Assembly (NCBI GenBank): GCA_008632985.1
Contig: QPGO01000114.1
Span: 62,001 to 126,000, forward strand
Reading direction: 5' to 3'
Length of the DNA: 64,000 nt
Source: Psammoneis japonica
Taxonomy: Eukaryota
The translations under genes were made by a program, and so were the position numbers. Shown one piece after another: positions 8,314 to 53,499 of this stretch (positions are counted from its first letter, which is position 1; every line of letters starts with the position of its first letter). The notes below the pieces were generated by a model. That model did no database searches. It saw only the letters and a list, made by a program, of their open reading frames with translations, and was not told the origin of the DNA.

Positions 8314-10917
8314 TTATCGACGCCTCCTTGTCGTTGCCTTCGTCATACTGTTCGCAGCTAGCAATTGTTGCAATGACCTTTCGAGATCTTCTCTTTTGGA
8401 GGTCTCTGCCCGAAGTGCAGCAGCCATGCGACGAAATCGGTGGTCCATAACTGCCAAGTCATATTTAACATCGTGCGGAAGGAACTTTTCGTCGATATCT
8501 TCCTTGTTTGCCGAGTAGTACTCACGCTCAAGAATGTGCCAAGGGGTGTAAGTGACGGGGCGGAAAGAGTTGATAGGAGCCAACAAGTCAGGCCGTCTGG
8601 GCTCGCCATCCTTCTTGGTTTTCGTCATGGCTTCCATGTGGCGGTAAAGCAAATACCACAAGAAGAATGCCCAAGCAGTGACAATACTCCCAAAAAGGAG
8701 AAAAGGCAACTCGAAGAACACACCAAAGAGAACGGGCCCTAGAAACCCCGTCAGCATGTTGCCAAGCCTTCGTAACCACTGACCAATGCCCTGATATTTT
8801 GAAAATTTGTTTGCCGGTATCGACGTGGCAATAAGTTCGTTCAGGAATGTCACCGACAAGTCGTTGATAGACGACATTATCATTTGAAACACGATGGCAA
8901 CAGCATATTCATCAGCGGCGAAGCCCATGCAAGAAACTCCGAGAACGATTAGTACAATAGGCACGTGCAGAGGCCGGGAGAGCAGTACCGTAAAAAAACC
9001 GGCATCCTTGCCTTCTGGGTCAACTTCAAAGTTGCTCAAGCGCTTGTTGAAAACACCCAAGACAAAGATGACAAGGGCCCCAAGTCCCTCCCCTATGCCT
9101 AGTAACAGCCCTACCGTGCCAGTGTCTACACCAAATTTCTCGGTATACAAAAGAAGCGCAGTCGACAGAAAGGTTCCGATGCACAATGCCATAACGGCTT
9201 GCGTCAGAACAACGACCTTCATGTACGGCCAAACAACACGGACGGCGGTGAGCCGTGCCGATCCAAACAAAGAGAGAAACACGCGGGGCGCCAGGTACGC
9301 CACAAACTCCCTCTCTGACACGTATCCGTCTCTATCGGTATCCATAATGAGCAGGGCGACCTTCGCAAAGTCTAGGTCGTTGAGGCCGCCTCTACGTGAA
9401 GTTTGAGCACTCTTGTTGAGGCTTTGGAACTGCGTCAGCATCTTATTTAGAGGGGCAGACGCAATAATGCTTTGTCTGTGTCGTTGCCGTGGCATGGATG
9501 GCGCTCTTCCCAAACCATTTTCTTCCTTCCTGATCTCTACCGGTCGTGGAAGCACGCTGGGATTATCAAAGAAGGCGCGATGGAGCTTTTTGAGAGACTC
9601 AGTCAATATGGCGTCTTTTCTCGCATCTCGGTACGCGTCAACCAAGCCCGGTTCTTCCACTCCCAAATGCATGGACGTTCTATGCGTTTCTCTCTCTATG
9701 ACATGCATGGCCTGTATTCTATAACCGATAGATCGTAGCAACTGCCTGCCACTGTAACCAAGGCGTTGCGTGTCTTCTTCCCAGTCTTGGTGTCCACAAA
9801 AAAATACAAATGTCCCCATGAGTTGTGCTACTTGACACCCTACCCCCGTCACGGCGACGGCTTGAAAGCCGTATTGCGTGTACAAATTTCCACCCAAAAT
9901 ATAAGCGACAAACGACCCAGCTGACACTGCCGCATACTGTGATCGGAGCCGGCTTGCCAAGACGCCCGAATCTGCCACGTGAGCCGGAGATTCAAATTGC
10001 GTTTCAGTAATAAGTGCAGTTTGCAGATTGACAATCACTTCGCCAAGGCCGACACCACAAAGTGCCAAGAGAGGCCACACGCCTTCTGCAATCGAAAATT
10101 CAACATTGACACTTAAAAATACCCAACCAGCAAGTCCGCAGAGAACCAAAGGTAGCTGCAGTCGAGTTATCGGGCTCTCGCCACCAAAGTAACTAATCAT
10201 GGCATTGGCTATCGCTCGACAGGTCTGGTAGGCACCCAACACAATACCAGCCTGCGTAAGGCTACCGCCCTTTTCTTCTACCACTTCGAGTGATACGCTG
10301 ATAAAAGGAAGCCGGGTGGAGACCGAGTAAAAGAGTGGCAGCACCCATGTCAGTATGAATAATGTAAAATGTTGAAATTTTGTTCGCTCTCTCCGTGAAA
10401 ACAAGAGCGAATAAAGCTTTTCCCGGTCTAGATTGTCCGTGTCTTCTCCAGCCGCATCGACAATGAGTCTTCCAAATTTCCGATCTCCAATGACTTTGAG
10501 GCCGTTCACAAGATCATCTGTTGACAGAGTTCCTGTATTGTCGACATCAAGGTACTTGAACAGAGTATCAACTGTTTCCCATTCCTGAGAAAGGCGTTCT
10601 GTGCTGACTCTTCTCATCTTTCTTCGCTTGGTCTGATCCTGTTGTTGTGGCTCCACTTCTTCTTTCTCTTCCTCTTCTACTTCCTCTGCAAATTCTTCTG
10701 GAATTGCATGAGTTACCCCACTCTCCAACAAGTTCATCTTGCTGGTTTCTTCGTCAACATCGCTTACGCTTACATCTTCCCAGTCTTCTGTAATTGACTC
10801 CACGGCAATCGACGAAAACGCCACGGACTGACGTAGTCGGCTTCGGTTTAATCGTTGCCGATGGCTATTGTTGTTGTTGCTGCTACTACTGCTGCTTTGT
10901 GTTGATCGTCTCTGCAT
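8314..10917 (-). CDS. Major facilitator superfamily transporter with EF-hands
   Basis: 867-aa ORF with two hydrophobic multi-TM bundles. EF-hand loops DVDNTGTLSTDDL (N-terminal) and DTDRDGYVSEREF (central loop). Confidence 0.8.
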   Translation of the reverse strand: MQRRSTQSSSSSSNNNNSHRQRLNRSRLRQSVAFSSIAVESITEDWEDVSVSDVDEETSKMNLLESGVTHAIPEEFAEEVEEEEKEEVEPQQQDQTKRRKMRRVSTERLSQEWETVDTLFKYLDVDNTGTLSTDDLVNGLKVIGDRKFGRLIVDAAGEDTDNLDREKLYSLLFSRRERTKFQHFTLFILTWVLPLFYSVSTRLPFISVSLEVVEEKGGSLTQAGIVLGAYQTCRAIANAMISYFGGESPITRLQLPLVLCGLAGWVFLSVNVEFSIAEGVWPLLALCGVGLGEVIVNLQTALITETQFESPAHVADSGVLASRLRSQYAAVSAGSFVAYILGGNLYTQYGFQAVAVTGVGCQVAQLMGTFVFFCGHQDWEEDTQRLGYSGRQLLRSIGYRIQAMHVIERETHRTSMHLGVEEPGLVDAYRDARKDAILTESLKKLHRAFFDNPSVLPRPVEIRKEENGLGRAPSMPRQRHRQSIIASAPLNKMLTQFQSLNKSAQTSRRGGLNDLDFAKVALLIMDTDRDGYVSEREFVAYLAPRVFLSLFGSARLTAVRVVWPYMKVVVLTQAVMALCIGTFLSTALLLYTEKFGVDTGTVGLLLGIGEGLGALVIFVLGVFNKRLSNFEVDPEGKDAGFFTVLLSRPLHVPIVLIVLGVSCMGFAADEYAVAIVFQMIMSSINDLSVTFLNELIATSIPANKFSKYQGIGQWLRRLGNMLTGFLGPVLFGVFFELPFLLFGSIVTAWAFFLWYLLYRHMEAMTKTKKDGEPRRPDLLAPINSFRPVTYTPWHILEREYYSANKEDIDEKFLPHDVKYDLAVMDHRFRRMAAALRAETSKREDLERSLQQLLAANSMTKATTRRRR

Positions 10918-11486
10918 ATTATTTACAAAATTTTCTTATACCAACTCTGATCAGCAACGACACAACATTGACTTGCGCGTGTGTGTCAACAGTCGCCCTT
11001 GTCCCCCCAAAGGTCGCAATGCGGCCAAATGAACAACGATGAAGCGGAAGCAGAAACCAGACACAAAATGCCTGGTTTGGAAAATTCGTGGACGTGTCCG
11101 GTGGGTAGATAACGAGTGCCTACAACAAATGAACACCTAAGTTTATGAAGAAGTTTATAACGCCTGTTACGGACAATTCTTGGATCAACGGAAACTCTTG
11201 GGCCATGATGGTACCGTACAGTGCTGGTCCCTATGTATGTTACGTAATTCTACGTATGATACTACATACAGCACCAACATACCGGTACGGGACTGGTGTA
11301 TTGCCCGCCAAAAATTCAGTCGCGTGAATTTTTGCGCCAAAATTTCAAGGGGTCGGTCGCGCGTCGGCGGTCCGGCTGATGATGCGCGATCCCATTTTCA
11401 ATTCTCGGTTTGCATTCGTCAGCGCTTATCCTCCAGCCAAATAAAATACAGTACTGGGAGTCTATTGCAGTTCCCAGAGCTTCAAA

Positions 11487-22690: not shown

Positions 22691-24615
22691 ATGAATGCGC
22701 CTGCAGTATCTCATGTCAATTTTTTCTCTTTCATTTCTTCACCATCCTCAAGCCACCAGCGCCAATCTGCACCAGCTCCAAGCCATTTCTATCACCGTCG
22801 ACTCAGTCATCATGCCTCGCGAAATTGTCTACAGGGCCTATCAAATAGAGCCGTACAAACAAAAAGTCCGGGATGCAAGAGACCACGGAGAGGCACCGCC
22901 AAAGACCTTTACCGTCACCAATGGCAACGCAAAGGAAAAGATTATTATCTTCAAAAAGACAGGGCCGATTACCGTGTAGAAGAAGACACTGATCGCCTCT
23001 ACAATGGATTTGTCACCGACCTTTCCTCCTGCGAGCTTGATGAACCCTACTGCTGTCTCTCCAAAGACTATGAAGAAGACCACACCCTTTTGAAAGCTAT
23101 ACGCTGAAGCAATGTGGTCACCATCCAAATCTTGCAGCAAATCTGATTGCCAATAGCAATTTGAAAAGACACTACGGGCCCTGTGGCTGGCTCGTTTCGA
23201 CTCGTCACCCTCGGCCTTTTTGGAGACGTGGGACCACAAGGCCTTTGCCAATCTTTTGCAGCGTACATGGATCAGTGTGTCCAGGGCAAGACCAGGGAGG
23301 AGCTCCTTTCCGTACAGCAGGGGCTTATCGACAACAATATCCGCCTGAAGTTGGATGCAACCAACGAAAGCCTTTGTACGATGAAGGACCAGCTTGTGCT
23401 AACTAAATCTCAGTTCCAAGACTTCGTTACATTGCAAGAAAAACGGGTCTCCGCACTGGAAGAAGGGCTTGCTGGATCGGAGGGGCGTGTCACTGGAGTG
23501 GAGGGACGTGTCACTGGATTGGAGGGGCAGATGTCAGCGGTCCAGCATACCCAAGACGAGCATGCACGGTATTTGAAGGTCTTGCAGGAGCAGATCAACG
23601 AAATCCTTGCTGGCCAAGCTCATCCCCGTCTGACTGATACCAACATTCAAGATGATGGCGATGATATAGAGTCTTCGGCTGGTGAAGTCAATATCTTGGA
23701 AATGGCGTAGGACCACAATGTGCAAGAGATTCTCGCCCAGTACCGATTCGATGAGCTATGCAGCGACGAATACACCGATACACTTGTGACTCCTTCGGTT
23801 GGCAATGGTCCAGGTAGTCACGGTGCTGCTCTCCGGACTCTTCGGGATGGAGTGTGGTTGAACGACGCAGTCATCGATTCCTTCCTTCACCTACTGTCCG
23901 TGTGGTGCGGGGAAACGGAGTCGGATTTGGCTGTCAACAGCAAATTCTTTTCGATCTTCTTCTATTCTTGTCTGACTGATGGTAAACCGAACAGCACCAA
24001 GTCATTCGACTATGAAAAAGTGAAGCTTTGGACCAGAGGAAAGAAGAGTAAGGATTCAGAAGTCAATTGTATTTGCCTTTCTGATTGTTGTCTTTTTTCT
24101 TACCAATTTTGCAATTTTCTTCTCAGGCGTCCTTGACAAGGATATTGCTTTGGTGCCACTCAACATTAGCAGCATGCACTGTATCTTGGCCGTCATCAGT
24201 CTCGCACAGAAGAACATCCAGATCTATGATTCGTTGGGTGGACGTTATCCTAATATTCTCGTCAATCTCAAAAAAAAAACCTGAAACTAGAGTACTTGGA
24301 CAAGACGCAAGCCGTCATGCCAACTCCGCGAGCGTGGCAACGAATCGAATCCACAGCAGACACGCCGCGGCAGAGCAATGGTAAGCAAAAGATTGCACAA
24401 AAGTGTTGTCATTGTTGGCTGGAGCTAAATTTGACGTCTCGGATATTGTAGGATACGATTGTGGTGTCTTTGTGTGCATGAATGGATACGCTTTGTCGAT
24501 GGGAAAAGATCCTAAACAGTTCGATACTGAGTGGATCGACAGGGAGGGTCGAAAGTTTATCGCCGCGTCTCTCTTGAAGGGCACTCTCTTGAATGTATCG
24601 CCATTCCGTGACTAG
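22691..24615 (+). pseudogene. Coiled-coil + Ulp1/C48 SUMO protease gene with in-frame stops
   Basis: WLNDAVIDSF, FFSIFFYSCL, VPLNISSMHCILAVI..IQIYDSLG, Q.N|GYDCGVFVCM (intron 24381-24451). In-frame TGA at 23105, two more TGA before 23183, TAG at 23708, and a frameshift in the poly-A at ~24270. Confidence 0.75.
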
Positions 24616-24939
24616 ACCGAGAGAGGGCAGTGTATCATGCGAGGGTTCTTTGGTTTTGCTGGGTTCGGTTGAGTATGCTTGCGGTATCCTACTTCTGCAG
24701 CCACCATCATTCCAAGCAACCACCAAACAACGAAATACATACGCAGTTGGAATCAAGACAAGTCGAGTCTTCAATCAAGTCATTGCAAAGTCGGTCTTGA
24801 CCGGGAAACACACACACCAAACTGCCTAGATCATACTTCGAAGTAACAAAATCAAACAATGTTCACACGTATTCCTCCTTATCATCGTTCGAATTAGCTG
24901 AACGAAGCAGTGTTGGATCTCGTCGCAGCAGCAGAAACG

Positions 24940-26500
24940 TCAGCTCAACGTCCCCATGTTCACTGTGCGCGGCTTGCTGAAACGGGTACAGCTTGGTGCA
25001 ACCATCCCTCGATGCAAAGTGCCTGGGTGATGTTCCAGCCGAGCCTCTTCATCCTTGAGAGCATTGTCATCTGGCGATGAGATTCCCTGCAGCTTGTCTT
25101 GGCGTCGCCTTTCTTGTGTGTGTGCAATCGCGACATGCAAAGGAAGGCGACCGGAAGCGTCCGAAACCCTGCACGCCTCGGGAAATTTCGAAAGAAGAGA
25201 GGGGTCTGGCGAGCTCCCGTTGATGTTAGTCGGGTTACCTGTCACTCCTGCAGGAAAACTCTGGTGACATTCTCGTCGACTGGCAGCAAAATGCAGTGGC
25301 GACCGTCCGGTCCTTGGGTCTCTGATTTTCAAGAGTTCTGGATGAGCCTCGACAGCAAGGCCAACCAAAGCCAGAGGACAAATTGACAGCGCAAGCGGAG
25401 TGAAGTGCAGGGATTTTGTTTTCAGTGGTGTCAAGTTCCACATGAACATCACCACCGTCCAGCTGCTCAAATTGGAGCAGAACCATGATTGGCAATTGCA
25501 TGTGCAGTCGATCAATCAAATCATTGCATTGGACTTTAGTCACTTGACAAGCACTCATTTCAAGAAGTTTGCCTTTGCTCAAACATCGCCTCGAAACTTG
25601 TGTCTTTCCATGAACAATGCAGTGATGAAACATCACCAAGAGACATTGAGTGGAAGGCCAGATGAGTTGGTGACAAATTGAACCCACATCAAGTCCAATG
25701 GAAGAGGTCTTTTACATCTGGCACATTCACACATCTTGGCTCTTCTTCCACCAAGAGCTGCCTTGTGACAGCAATTGAGGCATTGAATGCAGCTGCAATG
25801 ATGTGTGGAGGCATCTCACAATGATGACACATCACCACTTTGTGGCACAAGTTGACTCCCTTGGCCCTGCTTGCTTCAATGAGAAGTTGTGCCATTTCAA
25901 ACCCCCTTCCACAGAGAATGGCACATGCCAGGGGACTTGTTGGAACGCCATCACCATGTGGAAAATCTGGTTGGGTGAAGTGGCAGTTTTGGATTGAAAG
26001 TGACATGTTCAAGGCAGTCTTCAAAGCACTGTGACAGATCATCGATTTTGCTTCAGAAGCAGGAGCTGCGCCATTCCACAAAGGAATTTCCTGTTTGCAC
26101 CTCCTTCCAACAGGATTGTCTTCCAGTCTGGGGACAAGCAGAAGTGGAGTCAAAGGTGCATTGCTGTCTGCATCAATTTGCAAGACACAGCATGGATGTT
26201 GCCTGACCATGTGCTTGAAAGCCCTCTTGTTGGCACTGCTTGCTGCTTGGCCAAGATTGAAACCTTGGACAATGCTGCCCACCATGTGATGCAGTGCTGG
26301 AAGTCTTCCCAGCTCATCTTTTCCAGCAAACATGATGGTGCAGGGCAGGCACATCTCTTTACAAACAACAAGTGTTTTGAGGGTGGTTGGCTGCCACTGT
26401 TTTTGGCTTGAATTCTGCCACACAGCTCATGTTTTGCATCATTTTTCCTGAATTTCACAGTGCTTTGCCATGGTGAAAACATCAAGCCACAAGTCTGTGA
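24940..26500 (-). pseudogene. Ankyrin-like repeat gene, TpA-converted
   Basis: AHPELLKIRDPRTGRSPLHFAA, FPEACRVSDASGRLPLHVAI, DELGRLPALH. AHPE stands where AYPE is typical; almost no TA dinucleotides. Confidence 0.6.
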
Positions 26501-26812
26501 CAGATGTGGTCCATCTCCAAACTCTCATTTGTGTCATGTTCTTTGTGCATCAAAGATCTCATGCACATGAAAAGTTTGAGGACCACAAGCTGTGTTTTTG
26601 AGAAACATCAATGATTGTCATCATGGTTGTGCTTTGATCGTGGTGAATGATGTTCTCATTTTGGACTTCATGGGCAATCTCGTCCAAACAACAAGAGTGT
26701 TGTTTGCATTCAAAAATGGACACCAACAAACAACCTCACTTGAATGCCAAGGTGATTTTAGGACAAACATGAGGATGACCCCCCTTGAGAGGCACAACAA
26801 TTGTGCCACAAA

Positions 26813-27112
26813 TGTCGCGGAACATGACTCAGGCGGGACTCAGATGATTGGGTCCCGTTCACGAATGAAGAGTCACGTGATTTCTGGTCACAAGAATCAC
26901 GGCGAACCGGGATGTTTGCGATCCAGGGACGATGGTCCCCCGTGATGTTTGACGTGACGTTTGGACGTGTTACTTTGAGTTTGACAGGACTGTAATTCAG
27001 AAGAAGTAGAAAAGTAGATTATAATTTAGCGAGAGAAAAGTGAAGACCATTAATTTTAGTTTTGTGTGCTGCTGACAAGGTGTTAGTAGCATCGGCATCT
27101 GGTTGTCCAACA
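26813..27112 (+). repeat. 5' LTR (300 bp)
   Basis: TGTCGCGG...CCAACA; aligns to 32245-32548 with 8 substitutions and one 4-bp indel. Confidence 0.95.
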
Positions 27113-27171
27113 CGATATATGTCGACAGTTTGTGGCAACACTACATTCGAGAGTAGTAAGTGAGAGAAGCG

Positions 27172-28233
27172 ATGAGCAAGGAAGAACAGACCTACGAGAC
27201 TTCTTTGTCGTGGAGCGGCAAGAGAGAAGACTTCGAGATTTTTTTGGTGAAATTCGAGGCGTTCGAGAGCGACCACGGTTGTGACGAAGCAACCGATGTG
27301 GATCTAGGAGATAAGCTTCTCACCAAGGCGGAATACGTGAATGGAAAGAAGAAAGTAACGCAAGCTAATGGTACAGAGACCGAAGAAGACCTCACAAAGG
27401 AGGACAAGAGGTTGTACAAGCTGAATGCGAAATCATTTTCGAAGATCATCCGTGCGTTGCCTGAAAACTTGATCAAGGCCTGCAAGAACCAAGGTGGACC
27501 CAAGAAGTCCGTTTATTTGATCAAGGAGTATCTCAAGAAACACTACTCGGAGCAGAATGTGGTAGATGATTACCAAAACCTCTACAAGAAGAGGTTGGAG
27601 CTAGAACCTGGAGAGTTCGAGATAGCGCTGTTCTATTTCAACGAGTTGGAGGATATTAACTCCAAGTTGGGAAAGATTGATGAAAAGTATCGCTTAGACG
27701 AGCTTCAGTTGAAGACTGATATCTATTCAAAAGTCCCGGATCAAGGTAACTGGTCCTCTTTCAAGTCCGAGTATCGCAAGGACGGCGCGATGGAGAACAT
27801 TGCCTACAGTGCGTTCAAGCAGCACTATGAACGGGAGTGGAAAGCTCATGGTCCACCAGGAGGATCTACTACATCTATAGATCGATCTTCTGGAGAGGAT
27901 AAGACCCTAACTATGAAGGTACAGGGCAGCAAGTTTTTCCCGGGTAATTGTGGGAAGTGTGGCAAGAAAGGTCACAAGTCAAAATTTTGTCCTGACAAGA
28001 AGAACGCCAAGACGAAGAAATTCGATGGCGATTGCTTTTATTGCGGCAAGCATGGACATAGAGGGAGCGACTGCTTCAAGAAGAAGAAGGATGAAAAGGA
28101 GAAAGACGAAGAAACGAACGAGGTTACACTCGGAGTGTTCGATTCCGTCGACTTGGTTGAGGAGGGTAAGGACCCTATTCCAGACTCCTTCTTCGATACC
28201 TTCGATACTAAGCCCTGCAGTTCGAGACGATGA
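27172..28233 (+). CDS. gag: Gag with two CCHC zinc knuckles
   Basis: CGKCGKKGHKSKFC and CFYCGKHGHRGSDC. Intact ORF with normal Tyr content (15 Y). Confidence 0.9.
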   Translation: MSKEEQTYETSLSWSGKREDFEIFLVKFEAFESDHGCDEATDVDLGDKLLTKAEYVNGKKKVTQANGTETEEDLTKEDKRLYKLNAKSFSKIIRALPENLIKACKNQGGPKKSVYLIKEYLKKHYSEQNVVDDYQNLYKKRLELEPGEFEIALFYFNELEDINSKLGKIDEKYRLDELQLKTDIYSKVPDQGNWSSFKSEYRKDGAMENIAYSAFKQHYEREWKAHGPPGGSTTSIDRSSGEDKTLTMKVQGSKFFPGNCGKCGKKGHKSKFCPDKKNAKTKKFDGDCFYCGKHGHRGSDCFKKKKDEKEKDEETNEVTLGVFDSVDLVEEGKDPIPDSFFDTFDTKPCSSRR

Positions 28234-31200
28234 GTTCGAGAGAGAGCTTAAGAGGTGGGATACTCGGTCTGGACTGGGTTACGGCTACGATAGTAGCGGC
28301 GAACGCGCGCTGTCATGGTACGAATGGAGCGAGATGGCGGACGATGAGGACGAAGAAGACGATGACGGCATGAGTATGCCGGAGCTAGAAGGTCCTTTTA
28401 TTTCAGATAAGGTCGAGGATGAAAGTATCCCGCCCTTGGAACCGCGATATGATTCCGACAGCGATTCGGATGATGACGAGTCATTGGAGCTGATCGGCTC
28501 TCAACGCAAGTGCACCAACTGTGACGGGCCTGGACATGTCTATCGAGGCTATCGCACAACGAAGAAAGTTCAAGACGAGGACAAGGGAGACGAGGAAGAC
28601 AGTATCCCGCCCTTAGTATCTCGTGGCGGTTATGATAGCGACTCGAGCGATGACGAGTCGGTTGAATTCGAGGTTGTTTGCTCGTATTGCGGACAGCCTG
28701 GACACGAATTCTGCACTCCTTTCCAAGAGTTTTGGAATAACCCGGATGAAGAGAGCGATGATGACAGTATTCCGACTCTAGAGAGTGGTATGGACTCGGA
28801 TAGTGATTCAGAGTCCGAGTTTGATTACGATTCGGACGACGACTATGACGAAACACTGATGTCCGGTGCGCAGTATGAACCAGAACGTGGCGGTGTAAGG
28901 CTACTATTGGACTCTGGCTCGACAGCACATACTAAGAGGTCTGGTGAAGGGATGCGGAACCTCAAGGAAGTGAACAAAGTCATGAAGGACGCACACGACG
29001 GGAGTTCGATAGAGAAGCTCCAAGGAGATTTTCCATTTACGCGTCAGAATGGGGACGGTACAGTAGTTATTACTGAGATGTACGTCCAGCCAAATTTTTC
29101 ACATAACATTGTGAGTCTGACGAAGCTATTTGAGAAAAATTGCAAGCTGAGTCCGAAGACTGATCCCAAACGAGCCATTGTTCTCGAGTGCCCTGATGGC
29201 ACGGAATTAATTTTCGAAAAATCAGCGAAAGATGGGCTGTTTTATATGGAAGTTGACTCGCTGACGGATGTGTCCGAAATGACCGCAGACGTTTCTGATG
29301 GACAGAAAGCTGGACAAAAAGAGTCGGACAAGAAAGTCCATGTGAACCGCGCACACATTTTGCTGAACCACATGGGAGAACGCGCGATGAAAATGGCGGC
29401 AGCAGATCTCGGTTGGAAATTGACCGGCATACCCAAGACCTGCGAGTTCTGTGTCAAGGCAAAGGCTACAGCAAAGCCAACCGTGAAGGCTAGCGATAAG
29501 AAAGCAACCAAGCCTGGTCAGCGGCTCTGCCCAGACACGTCAGGACCATGCAAAGCGACGCGCGGCAAGAATCGATGTCATGCGATGACAGTCGATCAAC
29601 TTACAGATCGACTTTGGTCGATGTTCCAAGCAAAGAAAAATGGTTTTACGGACGATGTCAAAGCTTTGTTGACTAAGCTGAAGGGTCAGGGGTGCCCAGT
29701 CGAGTTCTCACAGATCGACAACGCTCCGGAGTGGGGTGCACTCAAGCCAATTTGTGATGAGCATGGGATCACGATCGAGCACACCTCCCCGAATGCTCTG
29801 CAGTTCAACGCGGCAGTCGAGAGAGCGTTCCCAACAGTGCGCAATGTGGCGTGCGCGGTGCTGAAAGCATCCGATTTCGACGACGCAGAGCAAAGTCGGC
29901 AGTGGGCGAATGCGCTGCAGCGCTGCACTGTCGTTCGTAACTTGGTCCCACGTGGGGACTGGAGCCGAAGACCTGGTAGAGTTTGGCGCAAAGGGGTGGA
30001 TGGCCAAGAGAAACAAGATCAAGGCCAAGTTTCAAGATCGTGCCGAGGAGGTTCGTCGCGTGGGATGCACTGAGAATCACTCGAGCGACACGTGTGTCGT
30101 TCAAAAGTTGTCCAATCGTCGTTGTGTGTTGACACGCAACGTGGCATGGGAGTCTAAAAGACGACATGATCACCTAGACCCCGAGACAGTGGTCGAAAAG
30201 CAAACTCCGCGAGTGACTTGGGCGGACGACGCAAGACCGTCAACAGTGGTTGAAGAGATGTCACGCCCCTCTCAGTCATCCGCAGATGACCCCGACTTTC
30301 ATGATTCTCATTCACAAATTGAGGAGGGAGAAGAGAGTGCAACAGACGGCGAGGAACCAACGGATGGCGAAGAAAGTGACTCCGAGATGGGTGTGCCACC
30401 TGATGGACCAGGACAGACGGATGAAGAATCAGCTGTGAACAGTCGATTGGAGTGCGAGTTGAGCAAGCTGAGGACTTCTTGTGACCCAGCTGGTCTCCCA
30501 AGCAACGACGAGGACGAGGCAGAAGCGGTGAATGTGGTCGCAGGACATGTTGATCCTGAGAATGATCGCGAAGCGATGACAGGCAACGAAGCTGACGAGT
30601 GGCGGAAGGGTCCAGTCACAGAGTGCGATGGATTTTTCGACTTGAGAACTTGGACACTGGTCAAGGAAGCCGAATTGAAAGGCAAAAAGACATCCAAGCC
30701 GCTGTCAACGAAGAACGTCTGCAAAAAGAAGTTACACGCGACAACAAAAGAGGTGCGGCATCGCGTGCGCAACTGCACTCGGGGGTTCGATGTGACACCC
30801 GGAGTTCATTTCGATGAATCTTTTGCACCTGCTCCGACGGATCACACTGTGAGACTCATGTTGGCGATGTCATTGTGGATGCTGGAACAGTTGGAAGTCG
30901 ATGATGTTGACGAAGCCGAGAAGGAGTGGATTGTCGGGCATTTGTTCGATGTTGTGCAGGCATTTCTGAACTCAGAGATGACTGGACCACCTGTGCATGT
31001 GCATCTTCCCCCTGTGTGGAAGGAGTGTTGCGAACACAAAGGTTGGGAGTGCAACGAGAACGATCTTGTTTTGCTCGGAAAGGCGCAATGTGGGCAAGTC
31101 GATGCCGCGAAGCACTGGATTGATGTGTTTGTCAGAATCATGACTGAAAAGGGCGGCGTCGAGCTTAAACGAAGCAAGACTGACCCTTGTGTGTTGCACC

Positions 31201-32244
31201 GTCATGATGACAAGGGGCAGTTGGAGACTGTCATTTTGATTTGTGTGGACGATGGTTTCATGTGTGGGAAGCCGGAAGTCGTCAAGGAAGCCAAGGACCA
31301 TCTGGCGAAGAGAGTTAAGATGCTGGACATTGGACGAATCGACACTCATTTGGGAATTGATTGTGAGTTGAAGAAAGACGAACACGGTTGGTGCTTCGAG
31401 TGCAGCACGCGCAAGTGCGTGGAAAAGATGGTTGCGGAGTGCGAACAAGGCTTCAACAAGACACTTGAGGATTGCGAGACACCTGGGGAGCCAGGGAAGA
31501 CATTGATGAAGGCGGACGAAGACCATGAGCCAGTCGAGCAAAACGGATGTCGAGCCTTCGTCGGAAAGATCCTGCATGCGATGTTGAAGGTCTTGCCTGA
31601 TTGCGCGAATGCGATTAGAGCGCTGACAATGCATTTGACGGATCCAACTGGGGATCACTGGCACGCGCTGGACAGACTTGTGGGACATCTGAAATTTCAC
31701 TGTCAGCCGTTGAAGTTGAGGTCACCTTTGGAATTAAGGAGCACAGGGATGTTCGACGCTGAGTGGGGGACGGACAAGAATGACAGAAAGAGCATTTCGA
31801 GTGACATTTCCACACTGGGCGGTGCGTCGTTGACCAATTGGCAATCGAAGAAGCAGACCTCTGTGGCGCTGAGCAGTTGTGAAAGTGAGACCATGGCGGG
31901 CACGGTGTGCGCGCAGAGCATGCAATTCCAGAATCATTTTGTTGGAAGAGCTGGTGGGTGCGGACATGTTGAAGATGCCGAGTCACGCGGTGCGGAGACA
32001 ACGCCGCATCACTGTTTCTGGCTGTCAACAACCAAGTGGGACAGCGGACGAAACACACTCACATTCGTGACAGATGTTTGGGCGAGTTGGTTCAACGTGG
32101 AGAAATTGAACCACGTCATGTCAGTGCGGAGAAGAACCCGGCAGATGTCAACACCAAGAACGCGAAGATCGAAACGCACAAGAGACTAGCTCAGAACCTG
32201 CACGACGGATTCGTGATGGTTGAACTTGAACCAATCAAGGAGGG
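28221..32244 (+). pseudogene. pol: Pol (protease, integrase, RT, RNase H), hypermutated and frameshifted
   Basis: PR LLLDSGSTAH; IN H-x4-H..CEFC, RLCPDTSGP, QFNAAVERAF; RT FDVVQAFLNS, KAQCGQ, ILICVDD; RH DAEWGTD..DRKSIS, WQSKKQTSVALSSCESE, RTKH. Frame changes at ~29960 and ~31940. Confidence 0.93.
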
Positions 32245-32548
32245 TGTCGCGGAACATGACTCAGGCGGGACTCAGATGATTGGGTCCCGTTCACGAATGA
32301 AGAGTCGCGTGATTTCTGGTCACAAGAATCACGGCGAACCGGGATGTTTGCGATCCAGGGACGATGGTCCCCCGTGATGTTTGACGTGACGTTTGGACGT
32401 GTTGCTTTGAGTTTGACAGGACTGTAATTCAGAAGAAGTAGAAAAGCAGATTGTAATTTTGCGAGAGTGAGAAAAGTGAAGACCATTGATTTTAGTTTTG
32501 TGTGCTGCTGACAAGGTGTCAGCAGCATCGGCATCTGGTTGTCCAACA
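32245..32548 (+). repeat. 3' LTR (304 bp)
   Basis: Preceded by a polypurine tract; matches the 5' LTR. Confidence 0.95.
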
Positions 32549-32639
32549 CACAAACTTGGTTGTTGTTTGTTTGCTGATGTTGAAGACAAGTGTGGTGCAC
32601 ATGAATTTAATTCTTGCACTGCAGAGCTTGCACACAGAA

Positions 32640-35300
32640 TTCTGCAGGGCCAATGTCACATGGAGTCCCACCCACTGGGACTGGAACATGTCTGGTGCTG
32701 TCCTGTTAATCTGGAGCTGGGAATTTCAAATCTCTCTCTTTTCTGGCATGGATGAAGTGACTTCTTGGCACCACAACTGCACCAGATGGGCCTTGTGCAA
32801 TGCTCAGCCACAAAACTCTCACATTGTTCCTTGGCGGGTCACACCACGGTGTCCTTTCACTCTTGAGTTGAGAGCTTCAAGTCTTGCTGTTTTTCTGGTG
32901 GGGACAGAGTGATTTGGTGACAAAGTTGCACCAAATGAGCCACATGAAGTGGCTCAGCCAAAATTCTTGAGGTGTTCCCTGGGTTCCAAGAGCCCCCCCC
33001 CCCCCCCCCCAACACCCTCTGCCTGCAGTTGTTGAGTTGGTTGGCCACATCAGAGCTCCAAGTCTCATCCTGAGTGACTGGAGGGCACAGCTGCGCCAGA
33101 GGGAGGAGCCTTGAATCACTCAGCTGTCATTGTCACAGCATTCCCTGTGCACGACCAGAGACCATCAATGCCCTCAGCCTGCAGTTGTTGTGATGGTCAC
33201 TTGGTGGCATCAGAGTCTCCTTGCATTCTGGAGTTGGGAACTTCAACTGTCATCATGCCATGGACAAAGTGAGCGGGGTCAGCCAACCTTCTCAAAGTGT
33301 TCCCTGGGCTCCACCAGAGACCCACAATGCCCCCAGCCTGCAGCTGTTGTGTTGGTTGGTGGCATCAGAGTTTCCTTGCACTCTGGACTTGGGAGCTCTT
33401 TGTCAACTCTCATCCTGGCATGGATGAAGCAACTGGGGGGCACAGCAGCTGCTCAAGAGTGCCTTGCAACACTCACACATCACTCTCAAAGTGTTCCCTG
33501 GGCATGACCAGAGACCCTCAATGCCCTCAGCCTGCATCAGTCATTGTGTTGGTTGGTGGCACCAGGGCATCCTTGCTCTCAAGAGTTGGAAATTTGTTTG
33601 GCTCTCATTCTGACAGGGATGAAGCAACTGGGGGGCACAACTGTGCCAGGTGAGCCTTGCAACACTTGGCTGCCATTCTCAAAGTGTTTTTCCCTGGGCT
33701 CCACCAGATGTCCTCAATGCCCTCAGTCTGCAGTTGTTGTGTTGGTTGGCAGCATCAGGATGTTCTTTCACTCTGGAGTGTTGATGGGAACTCAAGCTCA
33801 TCTCATTCTGCTGGTGTGGGTGAAGAGACTGGGGCCACAGCTGTGCCAGATGGGCTTTGCAACACTCAACTCATCGCACTCAAAAAGTGTTCCTCTGGCT
33901 TCACAAAGAGACCCTCAGTGTTCCCAGCTTGCATTGGTTGTGTTGGTTGGTCACATTGCAGGGTGTCCTTTTGTTCTGGGACTTGGGAATTTTGGCTCTA
34001 ATTTTTGTGTAGATCAAGTGACCAGAGGCCACAACTGCACCAGGTGAGTCTTGCAACACTCAACCACCATTCTCAAATTGTTCCCTGTGCTCCACCAGAG
34101 ACCTTCAATGCCCTCAGCCTGCAATTGTTGAGTTGGATGGTGGTGCAACTGTGTCCTTTCACTCTGGAGTTGGAACCTCAACTCTCATCCTGGCATGGGG
34201 AAAAAGTGACTGGGCGCAAACTCCACCAGACCAGCCTTGCAAAACTCAGCCACCACTGCCACCCCCCAAAGCATTCCCTGGATTTCACCAAAGACCTGCA
34301 GTCCCTCAGCCTGCATTTGTTTGGTTGATTCTTGGCAGTGTCAGAGCATTCACTCACTCTTGAGTGTGGAGCCTTGTCTCAGCTGTCACTCTGGTGTGGA
34401 TGAAGCAACTGGTGGGGGGCACAGCTGCACCACATGACTTGTGGAACACTCAACCACCATTCTCACAGTGCTTCCTGGGTTCCACAAGAGATCCAAAATG
34501 CCCTTGGCCCACAGCTGTTGCTTGCATTGATTGATGGCATCATGGTGTCCTTTCACTCTGGAGTTGGGAGCTTCAACTCTCATCACCTGGAATGGGGATG
34601 AAGTGGCTGGGGACCAAAGTTGTGCCAGATCTGCACAGATTTGCAAGCACGTGTCATGCAAGACATGACATGAACAACTTGGGTGCACCAGCTTCAATCA
34701 GGTGAGAAACATGTCACTGAATGCAAACAAACAAGGGCAAAATGGATTTGGGCAGCTGCATGTTCCACAAACAGGTGCGTGTCAGGCATGTCAATTGTTG
34801 CATTTAAGTTGGAAAATGAAAAACAACACGAACATGTTGGGGGGCAGCATTCGGGTGAACGATGAATGTGGGCATGTGCAAATGAATTAAAAAGGTGGGG
34901 CAACAATGAGAGACCATGCAAATCAACAAGTGAAGGGGACGACGGAACATGCAAAGAAGTGCGCCCAACAGTTGACAGTGGGGGATGACATGACCTGTGA
35001 TTCATGTGGCTCTTTTGCCTCTCTGATGGCCCAGCTCTCACTCTGATGTGAGTGAAGCAACTGTGGGAGCCACAACTGCTGTGCACCACATGAGTTGTGG
35101 AACATGCAACCACCATTCTCAAAGTGCTCCCTTGGTCCCGCCAGAGACCAAAAATGCACTCAGCCTGCATTTGTTGTGTTGATTGGTGATTGGCGGCATC
35201 ATGGCATCCCTTCACTCTGGAGTTGGGAGCTTCAACTCTCTCATCTCCTGGCATGGGGTTGAAGTGACTGGCAGCCAAAGCTGTGCCAGACAAGCCTTGC
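32640..35300. repeat. Degenerate tandem array of ~160-200 bp units (>=10 copies), TA- and CG-depleted
   Basis: Recurring ccctcagcctgcagttgttgtgttggttgg..cactctggagttggga..ggatgaagcaactgggg..caaccaccattctcaaagtg at ~33175, 33335, 33528, 33725, 33925, 34115, 34307 and 35161. Confidence 0.8.
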
Positions 35301-36244
35301 ATGAAAGGAGGAAAGAGAAGCAGCTCAGGAGCATGCCACTCTCTGGATTGCAGCACAACTTGAGATCAAGTCTCAGCTCAAGAGGAGCCTTGAGCAAATC
35401 AGTCAGAGAGAAAGTGTGGCCGTGCTTTGGCACAACAAAAAGACTGCCTGTGGGGCTTTTGTGCCAACTCTTCAAATGCAAGGGCTTGCTGGTGCTTGCT
35501 GTGTGAGAAGAGTGACTCATGATGAGGCACATCAGTGCCCAATGACAGTTGCTGCAGCTCTCTGGCTGGGGTGTTGTGCTGGGTGGCACACATGACTCTG
35601 CCCACTTTGTGGAGCACCAGCACATGCAAAGCTGGTGGTGTGTCTGCGCCCACTTGGCATGCTGGATGGCACACACTCAACCTGCACAGACACACAGATG
35701 TGGCACTGAGACAGCAAAAAAAAAGTCTCTGCTGGAGTCCACAACCTTCCAAGACATGGCTGGAAAGATTGAACAAAAAAGCAGTGTTTGGTCAACTGTC
35801 AGAAAAGATCTTGTGAGATTGGCCTCTTGGCGGTGACCGTGATGCCAAGCACCTCAGCAAGGAAGTCCCCTCTGCCACTTGGTGCCTCTCGCATGCAGTG
35901 ACAGGTTCAGCCACTCAGATCCTGCTCCCCCCCTCCAAGTGCCAAGCTCCCACAAAACATGAAAAGAGTCCACAGCGGCATTGGCGCAGGCACTGTGCCC
36001 GCCCGCCCGCCCGTCCGTCCATCCGTCCGTTGAGAACATTCGTGACGAGCGTAGTATGTCTTGCATCGCGATTGGGAACAGATTGCAAGCACCGTAGTCC
36101 GACTACCGTACAAAAGGATACAGAACTATGCGCTCTCTTCATTGTTCGTTTGAACGCATTTCTGAAAGCAAGATGATTTATAAGCATTACGCATTCTTCT
36201 TCTAAAACAACATTACACAGAACTGACTCCACCACTGCGGCAGT

Positions 36245-43899: not shown

Positions 43900-45560
43900 G
43901 CTGGTCCCGTCCCAATGCGCTACCTTTGGCTTTACGAACTTGGAGATCGACGAAGCGCCTGCCTTTGAGTCCGGAATCAGCAAACACGCACCAGCCGGTG
44001 TAACCTACCACATCCGCGTATACTCACTTCTCGCCGTTTTTGAAGCGGGTGGCAACTGGCGTTTGCTTCGAAGCAACGCCCTTGAAGTCCTCTCTCTCTG
44101 CGTCGCGCCATTCATCGTTTTCGAGCACCGCGCCGTGAGGCGGAGCTGCCGACTGGTCCGCCATCACGTGGTCTAACTCATCTGCATGTTTGGTCCATAC
44201 AAAGCAACAAACAAACAAGGATCAGAAGCAAACAAAAAGAAAAAACAAAATAAAGCCATAAAACTTACTGTCCCGAACATGGACTCCCGCCCTCGTCGCA
44301 CCAGTGCTCTCGTTTTCGAGCACCGCGCCGTGAGGCGGAGCTGCCGACTGGTCCGCCATCACGTGGTCTAACTCATCTGCATGTTTTGTCCATAAAAAGC
44401 AACAAACAAACAAACAAGGACCAGAAGCAAACAAAAAGAAAAAAAAAAACAAAATAAAGCCATAAAACTTACTGTCCCGAACATCGACTCCCACCTTCGC
44501 ACCAATATTCTCGAGATGGGGCATCATGGTTCTCATGAACAAGAAATGAGACTCCTGCAGAGCCCGCAAACCAGCAAGCGTGTGCCCGTCAGTTTCATCG
44601 ACTTTTCCCCATCACCTTCGTGCCAGTTTCATTGACTTTTTTCACCAGCTCTTCATGGTGACAGTCGGCATCAACTCCCATCCCCGCAAGCTGGCCGCTC
44701 AGATTGCGGACACTGCTGTCAAGCTGGCCACCTGTTTTGTCCAATTCCTTCTTCACCACTTTTTGCACTGACCCAATGAGAATGCGAGCATCGGGAGACA
44801 GGTTCACAGACCTGTCCGTGGTGGAAGAGCTGGCTGCAGATGCCGGAGACACAAGTTGGTCTGTCTCCTTCCATGTCTCCCCCACATTTGCCGCAACGAC
44901 AAAGGGATCAAAATTGAGTTCACCCATTTGAATTATTTCCTCCAGCTTTTGAAGAAAACTGCACAGGCATCAGTGAAGCATTCAGATTTTTCTTTCACAC
45001 AAAGGTCAGCAATGAGGGTTCCACACCCCACAAAGGTGGAAAAAAGAGTTAAGAACTTGCACCAGGTTTTGATGACACTTGGGGTGCAAGTTGCCCAAAC
45101 AAAGTTTTTCTTTCACATGAACAAATGCAAGCACAGATGCAATGTTAAGCAAGCCCACTTTGTCATTCATTGCAACAGCTGGGCAGTGGTCATCAGCTGA
45201 CAACAGGCTGCAGGGAGCAGCTTCATTGAGTTGGATGAGCCACTCCTGCTTTTTTTCCATCCTCACACTGCACGAGCGCTTGACCTCTCTCTCCTGTTTT
45301 GCAAAGATCTTTGAGTTTCTCAATTTTCTCCATGACAAAGTGCTCACTTGCTTGAGTGGGCTTGTTTTCTTTGACCAATGCATTGGCGAAGCACATCAGC
45401 ATGGCACAAAATCCAGCACAAGGCTCGTCTGGCAGGAGCTCCAGCTGGTTGAGCCCTTCCAGCACCACGGAGCAGTCAACTTTGACAGAAGCAGCCTTTG
45501 TGGTGTTGTTGTTTGATGTGTTGTCAGTTGAATGCATCTGGCAGGTGATTGCAGATTCTG
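43900..45560 (-). pseudogene. Hypothetical protein; 5' part TpA-converted, 3' part not
   Basis: Protein-like ORF pieces 45223-45591, 45006-45383, 44595-44927 and 44222-44569 are collinear on the minus strand. No family recognised. Confidence 0.4.
44115..44492. repeat. Tandem duplication, period 195 bp, covering one intron-exon unit of a minus-strand gene
   Basis: tcgttttcgagcaccgcgccgtgaggcggagc...aaaacttactgtcccgaacat at 44115 and 44310. On the minus strand each copy has GTAAGT...GCAG. Confidence 0.9.
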
Positions 45561-48500
45561 TGGTGAACACAGGCAGCAAGGCAGGGGACAAACAAAAAGG
45601 TCAGCATGAAAGCACTGACAACAATCATGACATGAGCGGCAAGTCGAGAACGCAATGAAACATGCACAGGATGGACATGAAACAAATGCCTTTGGCATGG
45701 ACACATGGATGAAGTTAATCCAGCACCACTGGTTTTTTGGTTGCTGCCCACCATGTCTTCCATGAGTCTCGTTTTGTCGACGCTGTTCTGACACAACAAT
45801 TTGCCTGCCTTTGTCGCAGACAGTCAAAAGTGTTTGTCAAGAGCACACAATGCAACACGCAGTTGCTGTGGCTCCTCTGCTGGATTGCTGTCAATGATCA
45901 ATGAGCTGCTCTCTGCTCTGCTCTCAAGCTCTGGCTCTGCATTCTGCGTTCTGCCGTGTGTCGATCTGTCCCAACAAAAAATTTTGAATCATTTCGATTT
46001 TTTCACTTTCCCCCTTAATTTCCCTTTTTCGATCCATTTTCACAGTTTTGCTTGATTTGCCTTTCTTTTTAGTCTGTTTTTATCTGATGCAGAAAATTGC
46101 CACCCGATTCCAAAAAATGCTGCTCTCCCGCAAAGACTCGCAATGAACCCGCCTGGCCACGCAAGATCCAATCCAGTCTGTAAGTGGCGCGGAAGAGGGA
46201 AAGAGAAGACCTCCCACAGATCGTAGCTGACACATTGCTGTGCCACCAGGCTAACTGGCAAAGCTTGAAAAAATCGCCCCGTGCAATTTTTTTGGTTCCT
46301 GGTGCAAAAACGAGAAATTCTGCACAGAATTTGTGCAGCCACCATGGCAAATTTGTGTTGTGCCCACCGTCGTTGTCAACATTTTGCAAAATGTGAGTCA
46401 CTTGGGATGTTGTCGGCATTTGTCTGCAGTGCCATCATGTGTTGGCGCAATTTTGACAAGCGTCGCTCTGTGCAAGAATGTTGATTTTGACTTGTTCAGT
46501 GTGTGAGTCTGCTGCTGTTGTTGTCGTTTTGGCATGTTTTGTCAAGTTTGTTGTTGTTTCCCTCCTTTCATCCTGTGACTTGTGCCTCAATCATTTCACA
46601 ACACATGTGGATAAAAGGGGCTGATGTGTGGGGCACCTTTGGAGTGTTTGAAACGAGCTCTGGATGTCGGCACGTGTTTGGTGTGTTTCCAACACACATT
46701 GGCAGTCCGGCACTCACTCTGCTTGTTTCTTGGTCCACAAGCAGATTCTTCCCTGCTGCAAAATGGCCTGATGTTTTACTTTGTTGAACATGTTGACGAC
46801 ACTGGCTGTGGTGCTTGTGGATCACATGCATGCAGGGATTTTGAGTTCTCTGCCAAACTTCATGGCATCTTTTTTTAATTTCTCATGGTGGTGTCAGCAA
46901 GACCTTAAAAGGCATCTGTCTCTTGAAGGATGCCTTTGCGGGTTGCAACAATGGCGTTCTCAATTCATGGTGGATCAGTTGGTTTCAAGGAATGCAGGTG
47001 GGAAAGTCTGGGACATTGGAGTGAGCCAAATCCATCAGCATGATGCTGAGCTCAGTCAAGGTGCAGCAGTGGATCAAAACCTTTCCCGGGACCTTTGCCG
47101 ATTGGGGCGTCATTTGGATTTTTGCCGTTTGCTTTCTAACTGCTGATGCTGCAGTGGAGTTTTCAAATGTGCTTGCAATTCTGACGGCGCACGTGGTGGC
47201 CCACCTCCAGACCAAGGCAAGCTGCACGTCACATGCTGTTGTTGTCGGAGGTGCAAAGCAGCGCGCAACTGGCCGGGTTTTTGTCACACAGCGCACTCCA
47301 TTCGATGAGCAGTGTCAATTTTTTGCATCTGCTCAAAGTCACCTTGGAATTGAGCTGGTGTCTTTTCACAGTTTTGTCACAATTCTTTGAAACACTGGGC
47401 TCAGCTCTTTGTTTGTTCTGTCATCTCATTGACCTCTTTTTGACAAGCTTTTGACTTCAGCCCCAGAGGCCCCCCAGACTGCAAGCATGGTGTTGAGGAG
47501 GTGTCGACTCCTTGCACCGGGTTTCCCGAATTGAGAGAATGCAAAATCTTGTCACACTTCACATTGGGGTGGAGGGCGGTCGTTTTGCAGTGTGGCAGGG
47601 CTGCATGATTTGTGCAAGGCACAGAGAAATTGTGCAGAAATCTGTCTGGTCTGCCGGAGTGCTTGAAACCCAAAACGCACTGTCCCAGTGAAAAATGCTT
47701 GCAAACTTTTTTCAGGATGTCCTCACAGACCCCACATGACCCACATGCATCAGGAGAAAGCTCGCAAAGAGCTCTTCAAGATGAATTGTGTCTCATGTTA
47801 AATGGACATCTCTGGGATGCTTTGACCTTCTCTCAAAGTGTTGGGATTTCCCAAGTGACAACAACTGTTGCTTGTTGAATGGCGACAGATTTTTTGTGTT
47901 CTGATGAGCATGCACACATTGTGGCATCTTGATGCACATGACGACATTTCTCTCTTAGAGCTTGCAATGTTTGCACAAACTTGCATGTCGCGCAAATGCT
48001 TGAGGACAAAAAGTTGTTGCCAATTTGCATGGGATCTGAGGGTCTCACCATGACGAAACTCAAAAATTGACTTTCGTCATGTCACACAGCAGAGTGTCCT
48101 GTGTGAAGTGACGAAAGCCAATTTTTGATTTTGTCTTTCATTCTTGAGATTTTGCATGTGCAAAAAAGGTTCACAAATTTTTTCAATGGGACGGCAGGAT
48201 GCACAGATGCAGAGCCTCATGGCTGCACCATTTCGGAGCTGTTGGGGGTTGGCATTCATTTTGCCATTTTGTGAGTCTCGTCATGTGCTTTTCTCATGGT
48301 GTTGTCTGGAGTCAACAGTGCAGCTGTGTTGGAAGTCGAACAAAAGTGCACGCTTGCAAATGGAGCCAACATTGCGGCCGCGGAAGTCAAGCTCAACTCT
48401 CTGAGGATAGACTGGCACTTTGATTTGCCACAGCCAGACTGCTTTCTCATGCCGACAGAACACTGGCTCCGGCATCAAGAGGTCCAAGGAGTTGGGGGCA

Positions 48501-51830: not shown

Positions 51831-52366
51831 TCTTCAGTCGTGATCCGTTTGCATGACAACGGACCAGCAGCAGTTGGGCGAATGCAGCAGTTGTTCCCGC
51901 CGGTGGAAAACAATGTGTCAAGCATGAAACAAGAAACGCAGCACCAGCACAAAATGTTTGCGGTCAAGAACTCAGAACAAGAGGCAGAATCCTCGGCTGA
52001 AGAAGAAGAAGACCAGGTCTTCAGATGAAGAGCTCTTTCAATTGAAGCACCCTCATCAAAAGAGCAAGACTGAGTCGACTGGAGCAATCCTGAAGCAGCA
52101 ACAACGACACTCCTCCAACTCCACAGGCACCCTTCTGGCTCCGACAACGATGAACTCATCTTTCTTCTGATGCCCGCAGCAATGATGATGTGTCCGCTTT
52201 CCAGTCGAGATGACTGTGCCGCTGCGCAAAGGTCACTCAATGCAAGCAAGCTCCGCCCATTGTGAGTCACAGTCCTTCCACACGTGTTCGTGTGCACTGT
52301 GCTCATGAAGCTGCGGCTGCTCGACACTGCAGCAGGAATCGGGTGAATGCCAAAAGCATTGGTTGT

Positions 52367-52490
52367 TCAATCCATCAACCCCACAATGGCGTCAAGGATT
52401 TTGTCGCGAGTTTTGTTGCTCTTGTTGCGCTCAAAGGGTGTCTCACCCAAGACGAGTTCCAAGGTGAGCACGCCAAGCGACTGCAAATTC
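52367..52490 (-). pseudogene. Ser/Thr protein kinase fragment (subdomains IX-X)
   Basis: LQSLGVLTLELVLGETPF...TRDKIL resembles DxWSLGVLxYELxxGxxPF. Confidence 0.5.
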
Positions 52491-53410: not shown

Positions 53411-53499
53411 GGTCTTGAGCTCGGCGTTGCCGAAAGATGGCTGTCTCCAGCATTGAACTGCCGGGTGCGAACGTGCTGCAGTGGACCATGCAGAAAATG

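Follow-up and report, generated by a model that had tools for sequence, protein, structure and literature searches.

We describe a Ty1/copia retrotransposon that appears to have been caught part-way through the erasure of its TpA dinucleotides. The element occupies positions 26813-32548 of a 64,000-nucleotide stretch of the genome of the diatom Psammoneis japonica (GenBank assembly GCA_008632985.1, contig QPGO01000114.1, positions 62,001-126,000 of the forward strand), the whole of which we call the window. We propose that a mutator acting on double-stranded chromosomal DNA turned TpA into TpG or CpA after the element had inserted, the changes having probably arisen in situ, and put the probability of this reading at about 0.8.

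The two long terminal repeats (LTRs) of the element, at 26813-27112 and 32245-32548, differ by 8 substitutions and a 4-bp indel in both MAFFT and global alignments, which reproduces exactly the count and positions that an earlier note on this DNA, made from the sequence alone, had claimed. Six of the substitutions are transitions at TpA, which read from the 5' to the 3' LTR are 26972 A>G, 27015 T>C, 27021 A>G, 27052 A>G, 27084 T>C and 27087 T>C, with three TG and three CA as products (p = 4e-6 for six of eight); a seventh is a transversion at TpA (27028 A>T, TA in the 5' LTR and TT in the 3' LTR), and the eighth, at 26875, is an A in the 5' LTR (CA) and a G in the 3' LTR (CG). The four extra bases of the 3' LTR lie within a GA-rich run, where their position is ambiguous (32465-32471). 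Seven of the eight substitutions fall within the bases of TpA dinucleotides, which make up 22 of 301 bases (binomial p = 8e-8), and at all seven it is the 5' LTR that carries TA (two-sided p = 0.016), the TpA count being 11 in the 5' LTR, all within 26971-27088, and 4 in the 3' LTR. Divergence is 2.7% (8/301) raw and 0.36% (1/279; 95% interval 0.01-2.0%) with TpA masked, in keeping with the low background divergence that the same note had claimed, and the per-base excess at TpA over this LTR background comes to ~220-fold, with a lower bound of ~40-fold. TpA is absent from the first 158 bp of both LTRs (26813-26970 and 32245-32402), where ~5.5 would be expected (Poisson p = 0.004), and these segments are identical except at 26875; the informative sites are hence confined to the last 142 bp.

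On the sequence evidence, TA is the ancestral state and the change runs from TA to TG or CA. The 774-residue frame for the reverse transcriptase (RT) and RNase H contains no tyrosine, while 20 of 21 homologues have 2.6-5.1%. Taking as conserved those columns in which Tyr makes up at least half of the aligned residues of 23 homologues, 22 of the 28 such columns 3' of 29250 hold Cys (15, TGY codons, Y being a pyrimidine) or His (7, CAY codons), six hold other residues and none holds Tyr or Arg; the lack of Arg rules out a double change of TA to CG. Among the 12 conserved columns 5' of 29250, which rest on two close homologues, five are Tyr and none is Cys or His. We also compared the window with short-read contigs of run X1, which may derive from the same sample as the assembly, the figures on differences covering 40 of the 258 difference entries; of two further runs, X2 gave sparse matches and X3 none. 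Sister copies of the element are evident from a depth of 216.6 vs 68.8 for single-copy sequence and from 474 contigs matched to the region, 195 of them at 90-95% likeness. From 29314 on, at least 21 differences are listed: in 14 the window has TG or CA and the contig TA, in two GA and the contig TA, five are of other kinds and none is the reverse. Over 27262-28844, a contig at ~3x single-copy depth differs at 10 sites (three with TG or CA in the window against TA, one the reverse and six unrelated to TpA), and ~70 TpA are kept by hand count. Non-TpA divergence from the sister contigs, among the differences listed, is 6 in 1582 nt in the 5' half and 2 in 318 nt in the 3' part. At 26880, both LTRs carry A and a sister contig carries G. 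The sister contig across the LTR start has, among those listed, one difference, outside TpA, and the TpA-free stretch of the LTR seems to be family-wide; the LTRs of this family may hold a segment that, lacking TpA, is proof against the mutator.

The loss of TpA is regional. Three sharply bounded blocks of the window (~25000-26970, 29700-36050 and 44450-59500) have a TpA observed/expected ratio (O/E) of 0.03-0.07 and raised TG and CA, the host DNA around them standing at ~0.6 (0.61); intact host genes are likewise at ~0.6 vs 0.03-0.07 in the repeat blocks, and the erased blocks include decayed host-type genes too. Within the element, TpA O/E falls from 0.67 (27113-29250) through 0.28 (29251-29700) to 0.07 (29701-32244, where 10 TpA remain vs ~113 expected), the best single change point being 29250. 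Seven of 12 TpA are lost across 29314-29631, and five of the seven kept in the 29251-29700 front have a strand reading TAY, a susceptible context, so that the front does not merely consist of protected sites. The only dinucleotide depleted in erased DNA is TA, joined by CG in the older blocks. CpG O/E is 1.01 in the erased 3' half of the element, vs 0.33 in the left flank (25000-26812, TpA O/E 0.05) and 0.14 in the right flank (32549-36050, TpA O/E 0.03); hence, the element appears to have inserted into a block erased long before, and its TpA to have been lost far ahead of its CpG. Other repeat pairs in the window (a 93-bp array, a satellite, and 192-486 vs 59372-59667) are uninformative because both copies are already TpA-poor.

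Twenty-three changes can be polarised, 11 to TG and 12 to CA, and these form 15 strand runs vs 12.5 expected. This balance without strand runs points to repeated single events on both chromosomal strands and not to RNA or cDNA editing, and it rules out processive one-strand runs. The spectrum of polymerase eta at WA (W, A or T) takes in ApA and TpT as well as TpA; hypermutation of that type is ruled out, as erased DNA shows no loss of AA (O/E 1.03-1.25) or TT (1.03-1.30). Read on the A-to-G strand, 18 of the 23 changes are in TAY vs 58% expected (p = 0.035), TAC being the commonest changed context (12/23); among surviving TpA, YTAR (R, purine) accounts for 43 of 77 in erased DNA vs 296 of 1557 in host DNA. 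The three transversions at TpA (27028, 29344 and 29791) may be by-products.

We posit the following history. A Ty1/copia element would have inserted once into a small repeat block already without TpA and much of its CpG, after which a host mutator would have turned TpA into TpG or CpA singly, on both strands and over many rounds, bringing the 3' 2.5 kb near saturation, changing ~60% of TpA in the 450-bp front and the 3' LTR, and barely affecting the half that spans the 5' LTR, gag and protease. Targeting would follow silent chromatin that spreads from the right flank with its satellite, the 5' promoter half being shielded, as the shape of the domain, its co-location with CpG loss and the known dependence of diatom transposon methylation on DNMT5 (PMC9998398) lead us to infer. 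The chemistry may be A-to-I deamination by a TadA/ADAT-like enzyme with a T-A-Y preference, with about even odds between deamination and thymine modification, methyladenine deamination or an error-prone polymerase; TpA being palindromic, a T-directed chemistry with an R-T-A preference would give the same pattern. The likely effect would be genome defence, in that conserved Tyr codons, including one before the catalytic aspartates of the RT, become Cys or His and the TATA-like motif of the 3' LTR is lost.

Several observations weigh against this account or parts of it. Simple distance-dependent spreading fits poorly with two features, namely an intact 5' LTR in contact with erased DNA and a 3' LTR that adjoins the supposed source yet has lost less of its TpA than the interior has; LTR chromatin that is open or bound by protein could account for both. 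The preference for TAY is modest, and Tyr codons partly confound it; a metagenome protein with a similar loss of Tyr, P0015, leans to His, not Cys. No deaminase family matched in the 49 window frames scanned. At 28400, in the 5' half, the window has TA and a sister contig TG. Methylation at CG does not necessarily make C more mutable in algae (PMC11884799), which makes CpG loss weaker as a clock. As to the reads, run X1 contains 0.77 of the words of 22700-32699, the rough bounds being 0.73 if none of the element's 3' alleles are present and 0.91 at most. This share sits nearer the lower bound, and the reads do not confirm the alleles that the element itself carries in its 3' half and 3' LTR; a low share is expected either way, since assembly into contigs discards the rarer variants of a repeat. 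The left-junction contig enters the 5' LTR by 30 bases, none of the listed contigs spans the right junction, and the X1 contigs do not connect the left flank with the TA-rich portion of the 5' LTR. Finally, the window carries a surplus base at 28213, 31937 and 31989/90 that none of the covering short-read contigs has, which hints at an imperfect consensus inside the element; the gag frame break at 28213 is possibly a long-read error. The frame breaks at such surpluses may all be assembly errors, in which case gag and protease would form one open frame.

The alternative that survives best, though we consider it unlikely, is that the mutator is real and the element chimeric, either through conversion or a double crossover with a sister copy or as a long-read consensus of several copies; the intact 5' half or the erased 3' part would then be donated, and the LTR pair would not be a before/after control. 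Such a donor could come from the sister copies, present at ~3x depth; the unconfirmed alleles, the one-base surpluses, which suggest weak polishing, and the 4-bp indel and one non-TpA change between the LTRs agree with it, as does the recombination documented among family members in Phaeodactylum tricornutum (PMC2806351). Nevertheless, the intact TSD (target-site duplication) excludes a single crossover or a mis-join between loci, and this perfect TSD, with the repeat at high-copy depth to the left and right of the element, excludes the simple joining of two loci. Moreover, the 5' half departs from the majority sequence by 10 substitutions in 1582 nt, 6 of them unrelated to TpA, non-TpA divergence is similar in magnitude in the two halves, the boundary is graded across ~450 bp, and a second partly erased copia protein, P0103, occurs in an independent data set.

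The U3 of a new copy is templated by the 3' LTR of its parent, and the erased 3' half could go back to a parent that was itself half-erased and was mobilised in trans, the local changes being those of the 3' LTR only. The lack of TpA in the first 158 bp of both LTRs and the stronger erasure of the interior relative to the 3' LTR would suit such an origin, which we nonetheless judge improbable: if U3 spans the TATA-like motif, the eight TpA at 26971-27051 of the 5' LTR should be gone as well; the TpA-free stretch seems family-wide; and the LTR differences would still need a post-insertion mutator. Even less credit can be given to a sequencing artefact, in which a modified base at TpA was miscalled in the assembly, as might be suspected from the many contigs that show TA where the window has TG or CA inside the element. 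Over the erased flanks, single-copy short-read contigs agree with the window at every base but one, with 1 difference in 24300-26459 and none in 26549-26842 or 32621-32950, and the erasure is thus not a long-read miscall, with the proviso that X1 may come from the assembly's own sample; two of the 146 relatives scored, both from JGI/IMG assemblies, bear the amino-acid footprint; and a miscall tied to one strand would not leave every site in a single fixed state, TG or CA, in two data sets. The lone difference in these flank contigs, at 26070 (CG in the window vs CA in the reads), suggests ongoing CpG decay or heterozygosity. We regard as barely worth entertaining both the opposite polarity, with CA or TG turned into TA in the 5' half by a process of the repeat-induced point mutation (RIP) type, and ADAR- or APOBEC-like editing of RNA or cDNA during retrotransposition: TA vs TG/CA between repeats is formally a RIP pattern, but the Tyr polarity and the sister contigs make TA ancestral and hence exclude RIP, and the 5' half is host-like in TpA (0.67 vs 0.61) with no enrichment, while pre-integration editing would leave identical LTRs and one-strand changes, not 11 TG and 12 CA that extend into non-retroelement flanks.

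A post-insertion mutator thus remains our preferred reading, and the direction and two-strand action asserted by the earlier note hold, the former on the Tyr columns and the TA of the sister contigs, the latter on the LTRs and the polarised changes alike. Its description of the LTR pair as a before/after control stands in that TA is always in the 5' LTR, but ~3 of the 73 TpA of the 5' half have already changed, and erasure has gone less far in the 3' LTR, where 7 of 11 TpA have changed, than in the internal 3' half. The in-situ origin that it asserted is the best reading, given the TSD, the common A at 26880 and the graded boundary, rather than a direct demonstration, and its 'recent, fast' process is plausible in a relative sense only.

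The inflation of LTR dating that the note had foreseen amounts to ~7-fold, a figure that rests on one background substitution, itself CpG-type. With the P. tricornutum mutation rate of 4.77e-10 (PMC6604790), which is used for LTR and copy-to-consensus dating of diatoms (bioRxiv 10.1101/2025.10.24.684338), the pair would be ~2.8e7 generations old raw and ~3.8e6 (1e5 to 2e7) TpA-masked by hand arithmetic; at a rate like that of Bigelowiella natans, which we calculate from its figures as ~1e-5 per TpA per generation, 90% erasure would take ~2.4e5 generations. A TpA mutator would bias standard LTR dating, and the older LTR peaks reported for F. crotonensis and P. japonica (bioRxiv 10.1101/2025.10.24.684338) offer a direct test. 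The locus contributes a TSD-bounded element caught part-way, an erasure with CpG intact that shows the order of two decay processes, and a concrete case of biased dating; its half-finished state and context preference make the enzyme and its targeting accessible to study, and the process could be a natural double-stranded DNA adenine editor. More tentatively, and at rather less than even chances, diatoms, and perhaps protists of the stramenopile-alveolate-rhizarian (SAR) group widely, may defend their genomes by mutation, with a dedicated DNA adenine editor guided by chromatin. Such an editor would spread through newly silenced transposons within ~1e5 generations, before CpG decay; active chromatin at the 5' LTR would delay it, and the erased promoter copy in the 3' LTR would make progeny self-inactivating; the TpA-free 158 bp of the LTR would be an escape adaptation; and the 'ancient' LTR peaks of some diatoms would be partly a mutator artefact.

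The element is assigned to Ty1/copia by an RVT_2 match above the Pfam cut-off (E 3e-21) and the order gag, protease (PR), integrase (IN), RT and RNase H (RH); the matches to zf-CCHC (E 8e-4) and Pol_BBD (E 5e-5) are below cut-off. The full-length relative P0039 aligns colinearly with it (tblastn), the nearest named relative is the Mayamaea pseudoterrestris protein GKY94003.1 (E 4e-161), and the HHCC and D-D-E residues of the integrase are visible by eye, with no Pfam match in the integrase region 29251-29700. The hallmarks of copia are present, namely LTR ends TG...CA, a TSD and a putative polypurine tract (Table 1). The TSD is perfect over 6 bp, the usual length for copia being 5 bp, and as it is the same on both sides, the target already read CA-CA. 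On inspection for a tRNA primer-binding site, the first TGG is 20 bases past the 5' LTR, and Rfam gave no match. A short deletion relative to the sister contigs lies at 29965. The retrotransposon interrupts the high-copy repeat of the left flank, whose summed depth is 4152 in the bin 26323-26611, and a search of the interrupted repeat for terminal inverted repeats gave a weak alignment only. The long acidic linker from gag to protease (28234-28870) comprises repeated IPPL..YDSD units and extra zinc-knuckle-like motifs and holds a direct repeat (28414/28591).

Table 1. Features of the retrotransposon and of its TpA-erased flanks, in window positions
Feature	Positions	Strand	Basis or remark
Left TpA-erased flank: decayed ankyrin-repeat sequence, then high-copy repeat from ~26400	25000..26812		Weak Ank_4 match, E 2e-4, below cut-off
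TSD, left copy, CACAAA	26807..26812	+	
5' LTR, TGTC...AACA, nearly unmutated	26813..27112	+	
TpA-free first 158 bp, uninformative on the mutator	26813..26970	+	
TATA-like hexamer TATAAT (TGTAAT in the 3' LTR), putative promoter role	27020..27025	+	Sequence
gag with zinc knuckles, TpA essentially intact	27172..28233	+	Pfam zf-CCHC below cut-off; tblastn P0039
Protease region (LLDSG) preceded by an acidic linker, TpA intact	28234..29250	+	Pfam Pol_BBD below cut-off
Integrase transition zone, kept and changed TpA interleaved	29251..29700	+	TpA O/E 0.28; sister-contig differences
Integrase end, reverse transcriptase and RNase H, TpA-erased, CpG intact	29701..32244	+	RVT_2
8-base purine run adjoining the 3' LTR, putative polypurine tract	32237..32244	+	
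3' LTR: 6 TpA to TG/CA, 1 to TT, 4 kept	32245..32548	+	
TSD, right copy, CACAAA	32549..32554	+	
Right TpA-erased flank: remainder of high-copy repeat, then decayed array of ~194-bp units	32549..36050		Sharp edge ~36050

Elsewhere in the window, the 15-kb erased block at 44450-59500 (TpA O/E 0.06, CpG 0.65) contains decayed host-type genes, with a Met_synt_B12 match at 52501-53163 (E 8e-6) and a frame resembling leucine-rich repeats by eye at 57297-58316, and also a 93-bp tandem-repeat gene at 53836-54822. A low-complexity tract rich in GA/CTAG is intact at 63010-63230 and partly erased at 49960-50500; within the 15-kb block, 50013-50500 forms a spared patch that keeps 10 TpA. Two copies of one gene fragment, 89% alike, lie at 192-486 and 59372-59667, each bordering a TpA-poor stretch. 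The host gene at 4808-7722 fuses a bacterial-type solute-binding domain with a 7tm_3 (class C G protein-coupled receptor) domain, and that at 8314-10935 on the minus strand codes for an EF-hand and major facilitator superfamily transporter, some diatom relatives of which have an extra N-terminal domain (PF00857). For a neighbouring host gene, the nearest named relative is in the diatom Thalassiothrix antarctica, at 39% identity, in agreement with a diatom host, as is the Mayamaea relative of the element.

Relatives of the element's protein were scored for erasure when they had at least five Tyr columns (4 of 150 had fewer), and cluster representatives may hide mutated members. On this footing, 144 of 146 show no erasure and two, P0015 and P0103 of JGI/IMG assemblies, show Tyr replaced by Cys or His. 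P0015, 53% identical, has no Tyr, with His or Cys in 10 of 11 conserved columns, the eleventh falling in a poorly aligned stretch; P0103 is erased in its first part and keeps Tyr in its second. Both are copia RT/RNase H proteins of other families, and the mutator probably occurs in other organisms too. A metagenome scan reduced 184 pattern matches to one locus, L001, the only DNA relative found; it is not erased (TpA O/E 0.48, Tyr kept).

Among known systems, RIP of ascomycetes also brings about repeat-confined, dinucleotide-specific transitions on both strands that kill transposons. However, RIP creates TpA, by C>T at CpA, whereas here TpA is removed, and RIP, triggered by pairing, mutates both copies of a linked duplication, whereas one of the two linked 300-bp repeats escapes here (TA in the 5' LTR at 7/7). 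As a retrotransposon, the element resembles the CoDi Ty1/copia elements of diatoms in the order PR-IN-RT-RH, in LTRs >95% alike and in having a TSD (Maumus et al. 2009, PMC2806351), the TSD being 6 bp here vs 4 bp for Blackbeard; TpA loss is not mentioned in the available passages of that account. TadA recognises UACG and evolved TadA prefers TA (PMC12265680); this UAC/TA target preference of TadA/ADAT resembles TAC as the commonest context here, a likeness of context only, and their natural substrate is tRNA.

The closest parallel is the TpA>TpG/CpA hypermutation of integrated DNA of nucleocytoplasmic large DNA viruses and virophages in B. natans (Mettrop et al., bioRxiv 10.64898/2026.01.13.699255), where the de novo TpA rate is ~1000-fold background and active in some lines only, TpA-poor genes are enriched for reverse transcriptase and DDE domains, and an ADAT2/3-like deaminase has been proposed. 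The main text of that preprint has 0 mentions of diatom, LTR, retrotranspos- or stramenopile, and it is the only relevant item in a literature search for a diatom or algal TpA mutator (subscription journals not covered), in which no earlier diatom or LTR report was found. The two systems share the substitution class, the dinucleotide, action on both strands, restriction to certain regions and an excess far above background; the present changes are almost only TpA>TpG/CpA, on both strands and in mobile-DNA regions, decayed host-type genes included. They differ in that B. natans is a rhizarian with integrated viruses, whereas here a stramenopile LTR retrotransposon, high-copy repeat, satellite and dead host genes are affected, and in that the rate is measured in B. 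natans and only inferred here. Erasure here is near saturation, with O/E 0.03-0.07 against 0.45 in B. natans, and has sharp domain edges, a front inside one element and a TAY preference. Thus, the locus presents a saturated, sharply bounded diatom version of the B. natans-type signature.

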